This document shows positions 2,196 through 36,405 of a stretch of DNA of 64,000 nt, one piece after another. Source of the stretch: Escherichia phage CJY920; sequence record PQ349265.1. One strand, given 5' to 3'. A program made the position numbers and the translations under genes. The notes beneath the pieces are model-generated. The model had not been told where the DNA came from, searched no databases, and saw nothing but the letters and a program-made list of their open reading frames with translations. Numbering within the stretch: position 1 is the stretch's first letter; each line of letters begins with the position of its first letter.

Positions 2196-2852
2196 TTATT
2201 TAGCCCTTCCTAATATTCTGGCCGCCTGAGAACATATTGATTCAAGGCGGTCATTACTTATATGATCATTTCTATACCAGTACATGGTTATTGTTCCAGC
2301 ATAGATATTATCCAAATTGAAATATGGACAACTGTACATGTAATTTATTTCGGGAGTAGGCTTTTTAGTTGGTAAAAAAGCAAATTTTGAGTCGGAATAA
2401 TAATGACGTCCATTTAAATGAACTGTATATTCATCCATAGTTTTATCAACAGGATATCCTCCAAGTGATTTTTCGCTTATTGTTGAAGGTAATTTTCCTT
2501 CATATGCTATAATATCAACAAAATAGTTTAAGTTTTTAGGGCGGAAAGAATACACCGCACTAAAGTCTGCCTCAGATGATATATGAACTATCTGGAGTTG
2601 TTCCAGGGCGACAGATTCAAAGCGTGCATTTCTTTCCTTTTCAATAATTTCACTGTATGTTTCATACTTTGATTGCTTATAGTACTCAAAGAAACTATCT
2701 CCCCTATACCAAACAATCGCCATTATAAACAAAAGAATTACGACAGCTACCCGGGAAGCAAGAACTTTCCCGGTAGCGTTATCTTTGAACAAGCGATCTA
2801 GAACACCAAACAGAATATCAGAGGGCGAAAATGATATTCTAGGTGCTGCCAT
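2196..2852 (-). CDS. t: holin T (218 aa)
   Basis: Translation MAAPRISFSPSDILFGVLDRLFKDNATGK... with single N-terminal TM segment; 218 aa as in T4 t; downstream of gene 38. Confidence 0.9.
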   Translation of the reverse strand: MAAPRISFSPSDILFGVLDRLFKDNATGKVLASRVAVVILLFIMAIVWYRGDSFFEYYKQSKYETYSEIIEKERNARFESVALEQLQIVHISSEADFSAVYSFRPKNLNYFVDIIAYEGKLPSTISEKSLGGYPVDKTMDEYTVHLNGRHYYSDSKFAFLPTKKPTPEINYMYSCPYFNLDNIYAGTITMYWYRNDHISNDRLESICSQAARILGRAK

Positions 2853-2869
2853 AGACCCTCCTTTTAAGA

Positions 2870-2877
2870 TATTTATA
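2870..2877 (-). promoter_or_regulatory. late promoter TATAAATA for holin gene t, inside the 3' end of gene 38
   Basis: Plus-strand TATTTATA 18 nt upstream of the t start codon. Confidence 0.6.
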
Positions 2878-3424
2878 CGTAATGCTTGAATAAACGCTTA
2901 TACCAAGGCTTCTGTTCTTTTTCAGGCCATGAAGGGAATTCACCACCTAAATGCTCATGCTTTTCTAAAAGAGCAAAGAACCGCTTAAGGTTTTTATAAT
3001 AAAATTTTTCCTTTTTATTGGCGACAGAAGCTTCAATCATATTATTTAAAACTTGGAACTCTTTATATAATTCTTCAATTTTTCTATTACGAATTAAAAC
3101 TCGCTTATATGTTTCGTCTTCTTTCCAACCGTCATCAGTCCATATATCAAATTCGCCGGGCTCATCAAAAGTTATACCAACCGGGCTTCCAATGTCACTT
3201 ATAAAAATTTCTTCTTTATTAAAAGTCCATGCCCGTTTGCCGCGATGGTCTTCTTCATAAATCCAATCTTGAGTACGTTCATCAAATACAACCGCGTATC
3301 CTTCTTTAGGTTCTAAAGGTTTTTTAATTGTTGAATGAGCAGGAAGACCGAGGCCTTTAATCGGTTTGTAATTTTCTTCTTTGTAAAATTCTTTAGTGTC
3401 AAAATAATAATGATATATTTTCAT
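2873..3424 (-). CDS. 38: gp38 tail-fibre assembly chaperone (183 aa)
   Basis: 183 aa, directly after gene 37; preceded by the characteristic SD-hairpin-AUG split RBS. Confidence 0.85.
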   Translation of the reverse strand: MKIYHYYFDTKEFYKEENYKPIKGLGLPAHSTIKKPLEPKEGYAVVFDERTQDWIYEEDHRGKRAWTFNKEEIFISDIGSPVGITFDEPGEFDIWTDDGWKEDETYKRVLIRNRKIEELYKEFQVLNNMIEASVANKKEKFYYKNLKRFFALLEKHEHLGGEFPSWPEKEQKPWYKRLFKHYV

Positions 3425-31898: not shown

Positions 31899-32234
31899 AT
31901 GTCTGAAGTACAACAGCTACCAATTCGTGCTGTCGGTGAATATGTTATTTTAGTTTCTGAACCTGCACAAGCCGGTGATGAAGAAGTTACAGAATCAGGA
32001 CTTATTATCGGTAAACGTGTCCAAGGTGAAGTTCCTGAACTGTGTGTAATTCACTCTGTTGGTCCTGATGTTCCTGAAGGTTTCTGCGAAGTTGGTGATT
32101 TGACTTCTCTTCCAGTTGGTCAAATTCGAAACGTTCCGCATCCTTTTGTAGCTCTGGGTCTTAAGCAGCCAAAAGAAATTAAACAAAAATTCGTTACTTG
32201 TCACTATAAAGCTATTCCGTGTCTTTATAAGTGA
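31899..32234 (+). CDS. 31: gp31 co-chaperonin (GroES-like), 111 aa
   Basis: [61 protein letters not shown]...; 111 aa as T4 gp31. Confidence 0.85.
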
Positions 32235-32381: not shown

Positions 32382-32630
32382 ATGATTAAACAATTACAAC
32401 ACGCTCTTGAACTGCAACGAAACGCATGGAATAATGGTCACGAAAACTATGGTGCATCTATTGATGTTGAAGCCGAAGCTCTTGAAATCCTGCGTTATTT
32501 CAAACATCTGAATCCTGCTCAAACTGCACTAGCTGCCGAGCTTCAGGAAAAAGATGAACTTAAGTATGCTAAGCCTCTGGCTTCTGCTGCACGAAAAGCA
32601 GTTCGTCACTTTGTGGTAACACTGAAATAA
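32382..32630 (+). CDS. rIII: RIII lysis-inhibition accessory protein (82 aa)
   Basis: 82 aa; MIKQLQHALELQRNAWNNGHENYG...; position after gene 31. Confidence 0.8.
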   Translation: MIKQLQHALELQRNAWNNGHENYGASIDVEAEALEILRYFKHLNPAQTALAAELQEKDELKYAKPLASAARKAVRHFVVTLK

Positions 32631-33028
32631 TTTATTGGAGAGTCACTGCCTTAGTGTGAAGTTAAAACGAGGAGCCGTCGAACTGTCTGATTAATGATTT
32701 GCGAATCATTATAGTTTTAAGACCCCGGCAGTTTTACGGTGTACCTCTTGAATGTTATTCTTATAGCGGCAAGTGCATGCTACCCCGAGGTGATGGCCAA
32801 TCGGGAGTACGCCTCAAGGCCTATATATCCATCAGTATATATCTTATCCTCGAGAAATCGAACCCGGAACCTTTAAGCTAACGGTGTGCAACAGATAAGA
32901 GCTATAAGGTATGATGACGGGTTTATGGTTATCCTGGTCGTTAAATATCCAAAAACCTATGTTCCCCTTGAGGGCTTGCGCAGGCAATGCCAATAAGTCC
33001 TGCATTTTCATTTAAAAGAGAATTTATA

Positions 33029-33205
33029 ATGGCAAAACAAGCTAAAGCAAAGAAAGCAGTTGAAAAGAAAGTTGGTGATTCTAAACGCGCTGGTTACAAG
33101 CGTGGGTCGAACTCTCGTATCAATCAAACTGTTGAGAAGATCATGCGCCGAGCACGTGCGGTTCTTCGAGATGATGCTTCTCGTTTTGGTAAGCAGAAAG
33201 CATAA
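33029..33205 (+). CDS. small highly basic protein (58 aa), function unknown
   Basis: MAKQAKAKKAVEKKVGDSKRAGYKRGSNSRINQTVEKIMRRARAVLRDDASRFGKQKA; SD-like AAAAGAG; followed by a terminator. Confidence 0.4.
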   Translation: MAKQAKAKKAVEKKVGDSKRAGYKRGSNSRINQTVEKIMRRARAVLRDDASRFGKQKA

Positions 33206-33210
33206 GTTGA

Positions 33211-33236
33211 GGACTCCTTCGGGAGTCCTTTTTTAT
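33211..33236 (+). terminator. intrinsic terminator
   Basis: GGACTCC-TTCG-GGAGTCC hairpin followed by TTTTTTATTTT. Confidence 0.75.
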
Positions 33237-33258
33237 TTTCCAAAGATTGCACAAAGTT

Positions 33259-33291
33259 GTTTACAGTATGGTTCCTTTGTGATAGTATTAT
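33259..33291 (+). promoter_or_regulatory. early promoter
   Basis: GTTTAC 33259-64 and TGATAGTATTAT -10 region. Confidence 0.5.
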
Positions 33292-33315
33292 CTTACACAA
33301 ACAAAGGAGAATAAA

Positions 33316-33366
33316 ATGAAAACGATTAATCGGGTTACGGTCATTGGGCTGATGTTGAAATTATAA
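33316..33366 (+). CDS. 16-codon upstream ORF (MKTINRVTVIGLMLKL) with strong SD, candidate leader peptide
   Basis: AAGGAGA SD 5 nt upstream of the ATG; stop lies 9 nt before the SD-less ATG of the NADAR-like ORF. Confidence 0.35.
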   Translation: MKTINRVTVIGLMLKL

Positions 33367-33375
33367 GTATTGAAA

Positions 33376-33834
33376 ATGTCTGAGCTAGAAATAAGAAGCA
33401 ATTTTAGATGGCCATCATGTGCATTAAGCAATTTCGCCCAATGGCCTTTCGTTATGGATGGTATCCAATTTGGAGGTCTCGAAGGATTCCTCCAAGGATG
33501 TAAGGTGAAAAATGTTGAACAGCAAAGACGTATATTTGGGTTATCCGGGCTTGCCGCCCAACAAGCTGGAAGGTCTTATGCTAGAGCTCAGGACCGTGGC
33601 ACGTTGTTCTGGCTTGGAACTCCGTTTTCAAGATATTCCGAAGCATGGAAAGAATTATACACAAATGCATATTTTGAAGCAGCGATCCAAAACAGGGGTT
33701 TTCGTGATGCATTACAAGCCTCGAAAGGAAAAGTTTTGAAGCACAGCATGGCTAGTGGTCTAACAAAAGATGATACAATACTAACCGAAGCTGAATTTAT
33801 TGATGTGTTAAACCTATTAAGAGACTCTCTATGA
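33376..33834 (+). CDS. NADAR (YbiA/DUF1768-like) domain protein, 152 aa
   Basis: Motif LSNFAQWPFVMDGIQF...EGFLQGCK parallels E. coli YbiA FSNFAAWPIKVDGKTW...EHYFQAQK as recalled; ORF-track start is TTG 33370; ATG at 33376. Confidence 0.55.
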   Translation: MSELEIRSNFRWPSCALSNFAQWPFVMDGIQFGGLEGFLQGCKVKNVEQQRRIFGLSGLAAQQAGRSYARAQDRGTLFWLGTPFSRYSEAWKELYTNAYFEAAIQNRGFRDALQASKGKVLKHSMASGLTKDDTILTEAEFIDVLNLLRDSL

Positions 33835-34679
33835 AGCCAACTATTTTGACTGATATTGATGGAGTATGTTTAAGCTGGCAATCAGGCCTTCCTTATTTTG
33901 CTCAGAAATATAATCTTCCGTTAGAACATATTTTAAAAATGATCCAAGATGAGAAATTTATTTCTCCAGGTAAACTCTTTAATTGTGATGAAGAACTTGG
34001 TGTCAAGTTAATTGAAAAATACAATCGTTCAGATTTTATTCGTTACTTGTCTCCGTATAAAGATGCCCTGTGTGTAATTAACAAATTAAAAGAAGATTAT
34101 AATTTTGTAGCTGTTACAGCATTGGGTGATTCTATTGATGCTCTATTAAATCGTCAATTTAATTTGAATGCTCTTTTTCCTGGTGCCTTCTCAGAAGTAA
34201 TGATGTGTGGTCATGATTCTTCAAAAGAAGAGTTGTTTAAAAAGGCAAAAGAGAAATATAACGTAATTTGTTATATTGACGATCTCGCTCACCACTGCGA
34301 CCACGCGAGTGAAATATTAAATGTTCCGGTTTATTGGATGGCTCGAGGAGAACGTGACAATATTCCAAAAACTGCTCAGCGAGTTTATACATGGAATGAT
34401 GTAGAAAATAAGCTTTTTTCGCCGAAGGAAAATAAAGAAAGTTTTGATAGTGAAAAAGCTATAAAAGATTTAATTGAGAAGATGGTTAAAAACGATTCTT
34501 TTCCTTGGAACACTACCTGGAGAACGCCTGGATTAAATCCTTATAATCATCTATATCATCTATATCATCCATATCAGACACATCCGTTTCAGACATGGAA
34601 CTATATTAAACCTGGTGGCATAGAGTATTTGTATAATAGACCTACTAGTGGTGATAATATTTTTCAAGGAGCATTCTAA
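33831..34679 (+). CDS. HAD-superfamily hydrolase, 5'(3')-deoxyribonucleotidase-like (282 aa)
   Basis: N-terminal motif I ILTDIDGV (DxDGV); start overlaps upstream stop (ATGA); aromatic/His-rich C-terminal tail. Confidence 0.5.
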   Translation: MKPTILTDIDGVCLSWQSGLPYFAQKYNLPLEHILKMIQDEKFISPGKLFNCDEELGVKLIEKYNRSDFIRYLSPYKDALCVINKLKEDYNFVAVTALGDSIDALLNRQFNLNALFPGAFSEVMMCGHDSSKEELFKKAKEKYNVICYIDDLAHHCDHASEILNVPVYWMARGERDNIPKTAQRVYTWNDVENKLFSPKENKESFDSEKAIKDLIEKMVKNDSFPWNTTWRTPGLNPYNHLYHLYHPYQTHPFQTWNYIKPGGIEYLYNRPTSGDNIFQGAF

Positions 34680-34948
34680 TGTTTGTTGTTCATACTATTT
34701 ATGAAAATGAAGATAATACTACACGTGATTACGGTCACGTAAATCAATTTTTTAGATGCAATCCAGAATTCCGTGCTCAAAAAGACGAACGAATTTTTAA
34801 AAAATGTGTAGAACAAGGTTTCATTTACGTCAAGCACTGGATGCAAGGAAATAAAGTTAGAACTACATATCATAAGTCTTTGCCTGAGCTTAATGATGAA
34901 TTGATTTATAATAGAAATGTAAATCAAACTCTGAAGGATGAACAATGA
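34679..34948 (+). CDS. hypothetical protein (89 aa)
   Basis: ATG overlapping previous stop; precedes ligase. Confidence 0.5.
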   Translation: MFVVHTIYENEDNTTRDYGHVNQFFRCNPEFRAQKDERIFKKCVEQGFIYVKHWMQGNKVRTTYHKSLPELNDELIYNRNVNQTLKDEQ

Positions 34949-36405
34949 TTCTTAAAATTCTGAATGAAATAGCATCTATTGGATCAACTAAGCAGAAGCA
35001 AGCAATTCTTGAAAAGAATAAAGATAATGAATTGCTTAAACGAGTATATCGTCTGACTTATTCTCGTGGGTTACAGTATTATATCAAGAAATGGCCTAAG
35101 CCTGGTATTGCTACCCAGAGTTTTGGAATGCTGACCATTACCGATATGCTTGACTTTATTGAATTTACGTTAGCTACTCGGAAATTGACTGGAAATGCAG
35201 CAATTGAGGAATTAACTGGATATATCACTGATGGTAAAAAGGATGATGTTGAAGTTTTGCGTCGAGTTATGATGCGAGACCTTGAATGCGGTGCTTCAGT
35301 ATCTATTGCAAATAAAGTTTGGCCAGGTTTAATTCCTGAACAACCTCAAATGCTGGCAAGTTCTTATGATGAAAAAGGCATTAGTAAGAATATCAAGTTT
35401 CCAGCTTTTGCCCAGTTAAAAGCTGATGGGGCTCGGTGTTTTGCTGAAGTCAGAGGAGATGAATTAGATGATGTTCGTCTTTTATCACGAGCTGGTAATG
35501 AATATCTAGGATTAGATCTTCTTAAGGAAGAGTTAATCAAAATGACCGCTGAAGCCCGCCAGATTCATCCAGAAGGTGTGTTAATTGATGGCGAATTGGT
35601 ATACCATGAGCAAGTTAAAAAGGAACCAGAAGGCCTAGATTTTCTTTTTGACACTCCTGAAATTAGCAAAGCTAAAGACTTCGCAGAAGTAGCTGAATCT
35701 CGTACTGCTTCTAATGGAATCGCTAATAAATCTTTAAAGGGAACTATTTCTGAAAAAGAAGCTCAATGCATGAAGTTTCAGGTCTGGGATTATGTCCCGT
35801 TGGTAGAAATATACGGTCTTCCGGCGTTTCGTTTAAAATATGATGTACGTTTTTCTAAACTAGAACAAATGACATCAGGATATGATAAAGTAATTTTAAT
35901 TGAAAACCAGGTAGTAAATAACCTAGATGAAGCTAAGGTAATTTATAAAAAGTATATTGACCAAGGTCTTGAAGGTATTATTCTCAAAAATACCGATGGA
36001 TTGTGGGAAAATGCTCGTTCAAAAAATCTCTATAAATTTAAAGAAGTAATTGATGTTGATTTAAAAATTGTAGGAATTTATCCTCACCGTAAAGACCCTA
36101 CTAAAGCCGGTGGATTTATTCTTGAATCAGAATGTGGAAAAATTAAAGTAAATGCTGGTTCAGGCTTAAAAGATAAAGCCGGTGTAAAATCACATGAACT
36201 TGACCGTACTCGCATTATGGAAAACCAAAATTATTATATTGGAAAAATTCTAGAATGTGAATGCAACGGTTGGTTAAAATCTGACGGCCGCACTGATTAC
36301 GTTAAATTATTTCTTCCGATTGCGATTCGTTTACGTGAAGATAAAACTAAAGCTAATACATTCGAGGATGTATTTGGTGATTTTCATGAGGTAACTGGTC
36401 TATGA
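34945..36405 (+). CDS. 30: ATP-dependent DNA ligase (486 aa)
   Basis: MILKILNEIASIGSTKQKQAILEKNKDNELLKRVYRL...; adenylation motif KADGAR; size as T4 ligase. Confidence 0.9.
   Translation: MILKILNEIASIGSTKQKQAILEKNKDNELLKRVYRLTYSRGLQYYIKKWPKPGIATQSFGMLTITDMLDFIEFTLATRKLTGNAAIEELTGYITDGKKDDVEVLRRVMMRDLECGASVSIANKVWPGLIPEQPQMLASSYDEKGISKNIKFPAFAQLKADGARCFAEVRGDELDDVRLLSRAGNEYLGLDLLKEELIKMTAEARQIHPEGVLIDGELVYHEQVKKEPEGLDFLFDTPEISKAKDFAEVAESRTASNGIANKSLKGTISEKEAQCMKFQVWDYVPLVEIYGLPAFRLKYDVRFSKLEQMTSGYDKVILIENQVVNNLDEAKVIYKKYIDQGLEGIILKNTDGLWENARSKNLYKFKEVIDVDLKIVGIYPHRKDPTKAGGFILESECGKIKVNAGSGLKDKAGVKSHELDRTRIMENQNYYIGKILECECNGWLKSDGRTDYVKLFLPIAIRLREDKTKANTFEDVFGDFHEVTGL

Follow-up and report, generated by a model that had tools for sequence, protein, structure and literature searches.

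The window analysed here is a 64,000-nucleotide stretch of Escherichia phage CJY920 (PQ349265.1), and we examined the interval from 33259 to 34948 within it. All genes and signals of this interval lie on the plus strand. An intrinsic terminator following gene 30.9 is found at 33209-33241, and a predicted promoter occupies 33260-33288. These are followed by an ORF of 16 codons (33316-33366), gene 30.3 or adfN, encoding a 152-amino-acid protein of the NADAR superfamily (33376-33834), and gene 30.2, encoding a 282-amino-acid phosphatase-like protein of the HAD superfamily (33831-34679). The 282-amino-acid ORF begins with MKPTILTDIDGV and overlaps the preceding ORF at ATGA. The remainder of the interval is taken up by gene 30.1 (34679-34948), which encodes an 89-amino-acid DUF3045 protein (Pfam PF11243, E=5.4e-61; T4 annotation) and overlaps the stop codon of 30.2 by 1 nt and the start of the ligase gene by 4 nt. 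Gene 30, encoding the ATP-dependent DNA ligase (34945-36405; Pfam PF01068, E=7.6e-33), forms the downstream boundary, in synteny with T4. The ORF list also contained an out-of-frame ORF of 75 codons inside gene 30.3 (33512-33739). It is the counterpart of T4 30.3', annotated at 128402-128629 as an internal translation in a different frame within gene 30.3. According to the ORF list and inspection of the promoter and terminator, the ORFs, both signals and the motifs sit where the original prediction, made from the sequence alone, had placed them; the ORF of gene 30.1 had no place in that prediction.

That prediction had also held that the interval is unlike the series of small 30.x genes in T4. 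A blastn comparison showed otherwise: the interval corresponds to T4 genes 30.9, 30.3, 30.2 and 30.1, with 94-99.5% nucleotide identity. Two blocks of alignment, 99.5% and 94.4% identical to T4, flank a clean gap of 1,432 bp; the first of them, at 32911-33331, is the 99.5% block and corresponds to T4 130658-130238. The gene names used here were taken from the T4 annotation, and the gene order matches that of T4 up to the ligase gene. The interval is shorter than that of T4 because T4 128806-130237, and nothing else, is missing. This segment covers genes 30.8, 30.7, 30.6 and 30.5 and most of 30.4. The interval is therefore T4's own 30.9/30.3/30.2/30.1/ligase block, minus 30.8 to 30.4, and the natural deletion of these five small upstream genes, a rare event, is its sole unusual feature.

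The deletion junction was placed at 33332-33338 by blastn against T4, by the sequences of the endpoints and by a four-way alignment. It falls within the 16-codon ORF (MKTINRVTVIGLMLKL*), whose make-up became apparent by comparison with T4, with NBG2, a relative that has kept 30.8 to 30.4, and with LH2. As predicted, a strong Shine-Dalgarno sequence, AAAGGAG, stands ahead of MKTINRVTVIGLMLKL. This Shine-Dalgarno sequence, the ATG and codons 1 to 5 are those of 30.8, and T4 gp30.8 has the matching N terminus MKTIN. Seven filler bases (GGGTTAC) follow, and then about 40 nt from the end of 30.4, read out of frame; the tail of 30.4, GGTCATTGGGCTGATGTTGAAATTATAAG, is common to T4 and NBG2. The stop codon of the ORF lies 10 nt ahead of the adfN ATG, in the same frame as adfN. 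A single deletion has placed the early promoter, the Shine-Dalgarno sequence and the first five codons of 30.8 directly before what is left of 30.4, out of frame with it.

When 50,697 phage records were searched, which gave 555 matching records, the junction was found in only one other record, that of Escherichia phage LH2 (OQ378934). LH2 has an identical junction (…ATTAATC GGGTTAC GGTCATTGGG…), which gives rise to the 16-codon scar ORF there too, and the sequences spanning it are 96.7% identical; in the LH2 record, 30.3 is annotated from an internal start, with a product of 109 amino acids. Since the breakpoint is identical, we consider the deletion in CJY920 and LH2 to be a single event. The scar ORF is composed of pieces of 30.8 and 30.4 and is known from two genomes with one common junction, and it therefore has no independent conservation. 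It had been described as a leader ORF; it is instead a by-product of the deletion, with the start of 30.8 fused to the end of 30.4, and not a purpose-built leader. A regulatory leader peptide was ruled out by this analysis of the junction, the short ORF not being conserved across independent lineages.

The terminator after gene 30.9 reads GAGGACTCC-TTCG-GGAGTCCTT followed by TTTTATTTT. Its hairpin (33209-33230), just before the first position of the interval, has a 9-bp stem with 5 GC pairs and leads into a run of T residues. The sequence is identical in T4, NBG2 and LH2, and a terminator is annotated here in the NBG2 record. An Rfam match to Atu_C8 at 33161-33244 (E=0.0018, below the gathering threshold) spans this hairpin and was rejected as a terminator look-alike.

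The predicted promoter at 33260-33288 is of the sigma-70/T4-early type, with TTTACA, a 17-nt spacer and TAGTAT, extended by an upstream TG; judged from these elements, it is probably active early. The interval had been credited with an early promoter of its own. A promoter is indeed present, but it is not specific to a cassette, being the one that normally precedes 30.8 in T4; after the deletion, it lies 88 nt upstream of adfN. The ORF of adfN itself has no recognisable Shine-Dalgarno sequence in the upstream tgaaattataagtattgaaaATG, as had been stated. T4 30.3 also lacks a Shine-Dalgarno sequence, and its start overlaps the stop codon of 30.4. Because the stop and start codons overlap along 30.3-30.2-30.1-30, this chain is probably translationally coupled. 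In CJY920, ribosomes finishing the scar ORF would probably re-initiate at adfN, although this is a conjecture.

The product of gene 30.3 was assigned by orthology, profile and fold. It has the same length as T4 gp30.3 and is identical to it at 148 of 152 residues (97%), and it matches PF08010 over the full length of the profile (positions 1-138 of 138; E=4.3e-69). The four conservative substitutions relative to T4 AdfN (T82V, E89P, R107K and M125I) affect no catalytic or invariant position. Direct Pfam scans gave no NADAR match for the 152-amino-acid protein, and no HAD or NT5C match for the 282-amino-acid protein, at E<=1; we therefore used family profiles, scans of individual family members and structure prediction. 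Pfam NADAR (PF08719) was matched by 23 of 61 relatives of gp30.3, with a best E value of 1.5e-7. A single-sequence phmmer search against the PDB gave no match for gp30.3, and its PHROGs family is labelled 'unknown function'. The AF2 model had a pLDDT of 93 and a pTM of 0.88, and a Foldseek search of the PDB returned YbiA (2b3w; E=4.6e-5, TM 0.67) and the NADAR structures 8bau (E=0.02) and 8bat (E=0.12), all further matches having E>2. The assignment of this protein to the NADAR superfamily, made in the original prediction, was thus borne out by the predicted fold, by the family-level matches and by the presence of the catalytic residues E36 and K43.

These residues belong to an N-terminal LSNF...E..Q..K catalytic motif that gp30.3 shares with DarG1-type NADARs and E. 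coli YbiA (8bat, 8bau and 2b3w). The YbiA fold is common to them as well (TM 0.49-0.67), whereas sequence identity to gp30.3 is only 15-20%. The 61 relatives show no variation at E36, G37, F38, Q40 and H123, and conservation of at least 90% at K43; E36, K43 and H123 are all present in the CJY920 protein. H123 lies in the strand at 120-123 (VLKH), where gp30.3 has His, DarT-linked NADARs have Asp and the YbiA family has Glu. A His in the last strand is a hallmark of the gp30.3 subfamily (PMC11125620, PMC11825919). The C-terminal helix, at residues 138-151 of the AF2 model, is intact and ends ...EFIDVLNLLRDSL exactly as in T4; in RB69, the inactive allele is truncated and this helix is lost (PMC11825919). 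Unlike DarG1-type antitoxins, gp30.3 is a phage-encoded orphan with no adjoining DarT toxin. In T4, the gene occupies the same site upstream of 30.2-30.1-ligase; there it is preceded by 30.4, whereas in CJY920 the scar ORF and the promoter of 30.8 lie directly upstream.

The function of the T4 protein is known. T4 AdfN (gp30.3) is necessary and sufficient against DarTG1, the T4 and T2 alleles give resistance to DarTG1, and E36 and K43, studied with the mutants E36A and K43A, contact ADP-ribose (Johannesman et al., Nat Commun 2025, PMC11825919). The T4 protein removes ADP-ribose from guanine in DNA in vitro (PMC11825919) and hydrolyses guanine-ADP-ribose in vitro (PMC11125620). Through this orthologue, the proposed role in counter-defence against DNA ADP-ribosylation of the DarT type is upheld (PMC11825919, PMC11125620). 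With 97% identity to the T4 protein, CJY920 AdfN probably strips ADP-ribose from guanine in DNA, acting as a DNA ADP-ribosylglycohydrolase, and by the same orthology it probably confers resistance to DarTG1 as an anti-DarTG1 factor. In hosts with the DarTG1 toxin-antitoxin defence system, DarT1 would ADP-ribosylate guanine in the phage DNA and block replication. AdfN would then cleave the bond between guanine and ADP-ribose by means of E36 and K43, with H123 in place of the acidic residue of the last strand, and this hydrolysis would restore replicable phage DNA. Papers of 2024-2025 already describe a phage NADAR that reverses DarT DNA ADP-ribosylation, namely the 97%-identical protein of T4, and its recognition here therefore adds no new biology.

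The product of gene 30.2 was assigned by its identity to T4, by motifs and by fold. It is identical to T4 gp30.2 at 270 of 282 residues (96%). The HAD assignment, first suggested by a DxDGV motif, held at the level of both fold and motifs, all four catalytic motifs being recognisable and the NT5C nucleotidases being nearest. Among 63 relatives, D8 and D10 of motif I, G11 and K132 of motif III are invariant, and T96 of motif II and D150 and D151 of motif IV are each at least 90% conserved. The AF2 model (pLDDT 83 overall and >90 for residues 1-190) consists of a Rossmannoid core with a helical cap at residues 1-222 and a tail at 228-282 that is rich in aromatic residues, His and Pro and is predicted to be disordered. 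This tail, an extra of about 60 residues, distinguishes the T-even proteins from homologues of about 200 amino acids in other genera, which lack it. A Foldseek search of the PDB gave 120 matches at E<=1e-3; the 50 listed were all of the HAD fold and included the deoxyribonucleotidases cdN and mdN. Like the cytosolic and mitochondrial enzymes cdN/mdN (2jao, 2i7d and 1q92) and the deoxyribonucleotidase-like protein 3bwv of Staphylococcus epidermidis, gp30.2 has a HAD Rossmannoid core to which a helical cap is added (target-normalised TM 0.63-0.71, rmsd 4.4-6.0 Å). The order of the DxDGV, Thr, Lys and DD motifs is also the same, and the distances between them are similar, whereas sequence identity is 13-20%.

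Matches at the sequence level were weaker. The gp30.2 family profile matched 2jao with E=0.08 over residues 5-102, and a single-sequence phmmer search of the PDB gave only noise. PF00702 was matched by 14 of the 63 relatives (best E value, 1.2e-4), PF13419 by 5 and PF06941 (NT5C) by 9 (best E value, 1.2e-4). PHROGs gave the label 'unknown function', with weak matches to the polynucleotide kinase and phosphoheptose isomerase families, and a literature search on gp30.2 found no paper. The structural model places gp30.2 nearest to the 5'(3')-deoxyribonucleotidases, and we call it NT5C-like without counting it among the members of NT5C. It would be a Mg-dependent, phosphatase-like enzyme of the HAD family with an Asp nucleophile, whose most likely target is a nucleotide or a sugar phosphate from the pool of the infected cell.

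Genes 30.3 and 30.2 were found in 1,510 and 1,452 T4-like phage records, respectively, and the genus counts match. We take the interval of this Tequatrovirus, with a probability of about 0.9, to be a vertically inherited T4 block 30.3-30.2-30.1 that carries a 1,432-bp deletion and in which 30.3 is adfN and 30.2 encodes a HAD-family protein.

AdfN rescues phages outside the T-even group only partly, and the authors of PMC11825919 therefore invoked an extra T-even factor, one that is probably required for full activity of AdfN. Could gp30.2 be a functional partner of AdfN, and perhaps this factor? One possible task would be to remove the ADP-ribose set free by AdfN, or a phosphorylated remnant; another would be to stabilise AdfN. 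The stop codon of 30.3 and the start codon of 30.2 overlap (ATGA), and the genera in which the two genes occur are almost the same. The genes are neighbours in T4 and in Acinetobacter phage KARL-1, of the Twarogvirinae, and lie almost side by side in Aeromonas phage Aeh1. However, this synteny is weak evidence because gene order is broadly conserved among T4-like phages anyway, and a check beyond the core T4-like phages found no HAD gene within 2.5 kb of the NADAR gene in Ochrobactrum phage ORM_20 and Klebsiella phage EI. In addition, plaquing of RB69 was restored by AdfN alone, although RB69 has its own 30.2 (PMC11825919). We therefore regard a partnership as unlikely. A bolder version, in which gp30.2 is the missing T-even helper and the deletion has put the pair under a strong early promoter, with the scar ORF feeding adfN, seems slightly less probable again. 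If the helper role were true, gp30.2 might process ADP-ribose or a phosphoribosyl remnant, or stabilise AdfN.

The original prediction had seen in the interval a region richer in G+C than its flanks and, from this, a sign of horizontal acquisition. Sliding-window analysis did not support either point. The G+C content of the region was 0.351, against a mean of 0.360 for the window (z = -0.36), and 62% of windows of equal length were at least as GC-rich. It was 0.333 for 30.2 and 0.307 for 30.1; 30.3 alone was mildly raised, at 0.416 (z = +1.56), a value as high as which was found in 7% of windows. With no rise in G+C content, and with both genes nearly universal among T4-like phages (about 1,450-1,510 records from many genera), the block is not a GC-rich cassette gained by horizontal transfer. 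Such a cassette, in which a promoter of its own and a leader peptide with a regulatory role would control a NADAR-HAD counter-defence pair, would account for the promoter, the strong Shine-Dalgarno sequence, the short ORF and the downstream gene without a Shine-Dalgarno sequence, all of which are present, and for the modestly GC-rich 30.3. It would also recall the suggestion by the authors of PMC11825919 that T4-like phages co-opted a DarG1-like NADAR from bacteria in the distant past. However, the genes are T4's own (94-99% identity), the region lies under the window mean in G+C, and the short ORF is pieced together from 30.8 and 30.4. This explanation as a whole is highly improbable, and recent acquisition and a conserved leader are already refuted.

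The interval is best read as an inherited T4 block with adfN as its probable anti-DarTG1 gene. A mainly metabolic role for gp30.3, as a YbiA-like N-glycosidase on intermediates of the riboflavin pathway or another NAD/ADP-ribose metabolite, has very little chance of being correct: YbiA is the best structural neighbour and the sole PDB match of the family profile (E=0.0033), and the T4 NADAR did not rescue uninfected E. coli from DarT1 toxicity (PMC11125620), but the 97%-identical T4 protein defeats DarTG1 and acts on ADP-ribosylated DNA, and the subfamily has the last-strand His, not the Glu of the YbiA type. The lack of rescue in uninfected cells indicates that the activity of the T4 NADAR depends on context.

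Outside the interval and just upstream of it, at 32760-32908 of the window, we observed a structured RNA of about 150 nt with strong covariation. It matched nothing relevant in Rfam at E<=10, ARAGORN found no tRNA in the region, and its 20-nt core was found in none of 100,044 bacterial and archaeal genomes. A literature search found no description of it. Folding of the single sequence was uninformative, since the MFE z-score of the whole intergenic region was only -1.18. The RNA is phage-specific, and NBG2, LH2 and KPN6 are among its carriers; it is absent from T4, the reference strain of which has lost it. Compared with the NADAR block, this RNA is the more novel object and the more valuable lead.

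Gene order was taken from the ORF list of the window and the T4 annotation; the + strand, on which all of the following features lie, is the direction of T4 early transcription. Gene 31 (31899-32234), rIII (32382-32630) and 30.9 (33029-33205) are followed by a 16-codon ORF (33316-33366), 30.3 (33376-33834), 30.2 (33831-34679), 30.1 (34679-34948) and the ligase gene 30 (34945-36405), with alt.1 and alt after the ligase gene. A consensus scan located a clean intrinsic terminator (33209-33230 plus a T-run) and a promoter-like site at 33260-33288 (TTTACA, a 17-nt spacer and TAGTAT, with TG). The physical features listed in the original prediction, namely the terminator, the promoter-like site and the ORFs, are thus real. 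The observation was partly confirmed and its interpretation partly supported; the framing as a GC-rich cassette with a leader ORF was wrong.

When the interval was compared with 50,697 phage records by megablast, 968 T4-like records matched, 494 of them covering at least 80% of it. Window 32911-33331 corresponds to T4 130658-130238 at 99.5% identity and window 33336-35053 to T4 128805-127100 at 94.4% identity; the 1,432 bp between these two T4 blocks, with genes 30.8, 30.7, 30.6, 30.5 and most of 30.4, are missing in the window. The products of 30.3 and 30.2 are identical to the T4 proteins at 148 of 152 and 270 of 282 residues, respectively. By tblastn, 1,510 phage records contained 30.3 and 1,452 contained 30.2, with nearly equal counts by genus (Klebsiella, 272 versus 279; Aeromonas, 77 versus 77; Acinetobacter, 69 versus 69). 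The foreign cassette proposed earlier thus consists of T4's own genes, and 30.3 and 30.2 are old, vertically inherited components of the T4-like genome. Nor was the GC content of 33259-34948 elevated: it was 0.351, compared with 0.360 for the window (z = -0.36 against equal-length windows). Genes 30.2 and 30.1 had values of 0.333 and 0.307, and 30.3 was the only raised gene of the block (0.416; z = +1.56; a value reached by 7% of windows of the same length). The stretch from rIII to 30.9 had a GC content of 0.424. The GC-rich stretch that had been sensed is rIII to 30.9 plus 30.3, mostly upstream of 33259.

Pfam assigned gp30.3 to Phage_30_3 (E = 4e-69) and the 89-aa gp30.1 to DUF3045 (E = 5e-61), and gave no family for gp30.2. 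The proposal that gp30.3 is a NADAR protein held. Among 61 relatives, P13, L17-F20, F25, E36, G37, F38, Q40 and H123 were invariant, and K43 was conserved in at least 90%. The family profile matched Escherichia coli YbiA (2b3w; E = 0.0033) across the LSNF...E..Q..K motif, and 23 of the 61 members matched Pfam NADAR individually. The only meaningful PDB neighbours of the AlphaFold model (pLDDT 93) were YbiA and the NADAR crystal structures 8bau and 8bat. T4 gene 30.3, renamed adfN, is both necessary and sufficient for the resistance of T-even phages to DarTG1; the substitutions E36A and K43A impair AdfN, which strips ADP-ribose from DNA in vitro, and RB69 is sensitive to DarTG1 owing to a frameshift that deletes the last 15 residues of its AdfN (Johannesman et al., Nat Commun 2025, PMC11825919). 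De-ADP-ribosylation by the T4 protein is guanine specific, and NADARs of the gp30.3 type are marked by a His in place of Glu/Asp (Toxins 2024, PMC11125620). The allele of the window has E36, K43 and H123 and a complete C-terminal helix. By orthology, gp30.3 of the window is AdfN, a NADAR enzyme. The functional guess of an anti-DarT role was correct, by way of the T4 orthologue, and this counter-defence function is already published rather than new.

The 282-aa gp30.2 had been proposed to be a HAD protein, and this was borne out. In 63 relatives, D8, D10, G11 and K132 were invariant and T96, D150 and D151 nearly so; these residues make up the four HAD motifs in canonical order. The model was confident for residues 1-222, and the best 50 of 120 Foldseek matches in the PDB (E ≤ 1e-3) were all HAD-fold entries. 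Among the matches listed, cytosolic and mitochondrial 5'(3')-deoxyribonucleotidases and a staphylococcal deoxyribonucleotidase-like protein had the lowest rmsd and the highest target TM. The family profile matched NT5C weakly (E = 0.08), and 9 of the 63 relatives matched PF06941. Because these sequence links are weak, gp30.2 is best described as a predicted HAD-fold phosphatase-like protein that is NT5C-like, not a member of NT5C. The T-even tail (residues 228-282; 34514-34676), about 55 residues rich in Tyr, His, Pro, Asn and Trp (...NPYNHLYHLYHPYQTHPFQTWNYIKPGG...), is predicted to be disordered; the window phage has a 4-residue HLYH insertion there relative to T4, and many homologues in other genera are about 200 aa long and lack the tail. 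No mention of gp30.2 was found in the literature searched. A functional partnership of gp30.2 with AdfN is improbable. The 30.3 stop and 30.2 start codons overlap, the two genes are adjacent in T4 and Acinetobacter phage KARL-1 and nearly so in Aeromonas phage Aeh1, and T-even phages have been suggested to supply a further factor for full AdfN activity (PMC11825919). However, gene order is conserved among T4-like phages in general, which makes adjacency a weaker argument, and Ochrobactrum phage ORM_20 and Klebsiella phage EI carry a NADAR gene without a HAD neighbour.

The 16-codon ORF, taken earlier for a leader, is a deletion scar. T4 gp30.8 begins with MKTIN, and gp30.4 ends in ...CYGHWADVEIISIENV, its stop codon overlapping the 30.3 ATG (ATGTCTGA). 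The scar ORF consists of the 30.8 Shine-Dalgarno sequence, ATG and first 16 nt, 7 filler bases (GGGTTAC) and the 30.4 tail GGTCATTGGGCTGATGTTGAAATTATAAG in the wrong frame; its product is MKTINRVTVIGLMLKL, and it stops 10 nt upstream of the 30.3 ATG. Only 1 of 555 matching records, Escherichia phage LH2, spans the junction, with an identical breakpoint; the junction thus reflects one past event rather than a regulatory device under conservation. No Shine-Dalgarno sequence was found upstream of 30.3 in the window, and T4 30.3 is presumably coupled to 30.4. The scar may nevertheless have a mechanical effect: a ribosome that terminates on it could start again at adfN, and the predicted 30.8 early promoter now lies 88 nt upstream of that gene. 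The LH2 depositors annotated 30.3 from an internal start (2706-3035 of the LH2 locus sequence; 109 aa versus the full 152 aa), the likely reason being that no Shine-Dalgarno sequence precedes the true start. Such a start is an annotation trap for automated pipelines, and the same artefact seems to account for several database clusters of 109-126 aa. A 75-codon ORF in another frame within adfN (33512-33739, +), annotated in T4 as 30.3' ('internal translation in a different reading frame'), is kept in the window.

The rIII-30.9 spacer has 155 extra bases relative to T4, and a candidate structured RNA of about 150 nt lies there (32760-32908, +; covariance-model match, 32755-32913). Seven helices were proposed: P0 (32760-67/32901-08), P0b (32768-70/32819-21), P1 (32779-91/32796-812), P2 (32822-28/32835-41), P3 (32842-48/32894-900), P3a (32850-53/32858-61, with a GAAA loop) and P3b (32862-66/32882-87). 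In a MAFFT alignment of 20 distinct copies, 99-99.5% of cells were paired, compared with 25-42% in slid controls, and 11 pairs had compensatory changes, a number reached in 0 of 500 shuffles. When more divergent copies from a covariance-model search were included, compensatory changes were seen in 23 of 43 pairs; this second alignment, being fitted to the model, is biased in favour of the structure. Where only one partner of a pair had changed, C-G had become U-G or G-C had become G-U, a pattern seen for the + strand alone that suggests an RNA transcribed in the direction of the early genes. Different copies carry indels of 1, 2 and 7 nt that disrupt any shared frame, so the 42-45-aa ORFs that some annotators place here are unlikely to be real. 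The 3' core, ACCCGGAaCCUUuAAGCUAACGGUGUGCAACAG, varies hardly at all.

A 186-nt query over the insert (32740-32925) matched 404 T4-like phage records. The core of about 135 nt was 91-96% identical in Klebsiella, Enterobacter and Raoultella phages and 85% identical in an Erwinia phage, always between the rIII and 30.9 homologues, and these flanking genes were less identical at the nucleotide level (73% and 87%, respectively). A divergent full-length copy also occurs between uvsY and uvsW in Yersinia phage JC221, so the candidate RNA behaves like a self-contained module. T4 has lost it, which shows that it is dispensable in the laboratory. Rfam 15 gave no match at E ≤ 10, ARAGORN gave no tRNA, the 20-nt core had no match in a scan of 100,044 genomes of bacteria and archaea, and a literature search found no description of it. 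Just after the rIII stop codon lies a hairpin motif, GAGTCACTGCCTTAGTGTGAAGTTA (32640-32664, +), which recurs at 88% identity (E = 0.006) directly downstream of the JC221 RNA copy, where one stem pair has changed from A-U to G-U. This motif may belong to a longer transcript or form a second small RNA element that is conserved. Gene 30.9 (33029-33205, +) encodes a very basic 58-aa protein (MAKQAKAKKAVEKK...RFGKQKA) with no family in a Pfam search and assigned to PHROG 1427 ('unknown function'). It is unusually conserved, with 87% nucleotide identity to Klebsiella phage KPN6, compared with 73% for rIII. In most phages 30.9 lies downstream of the structured RNA, and T4 has 30.9 without the RNA.
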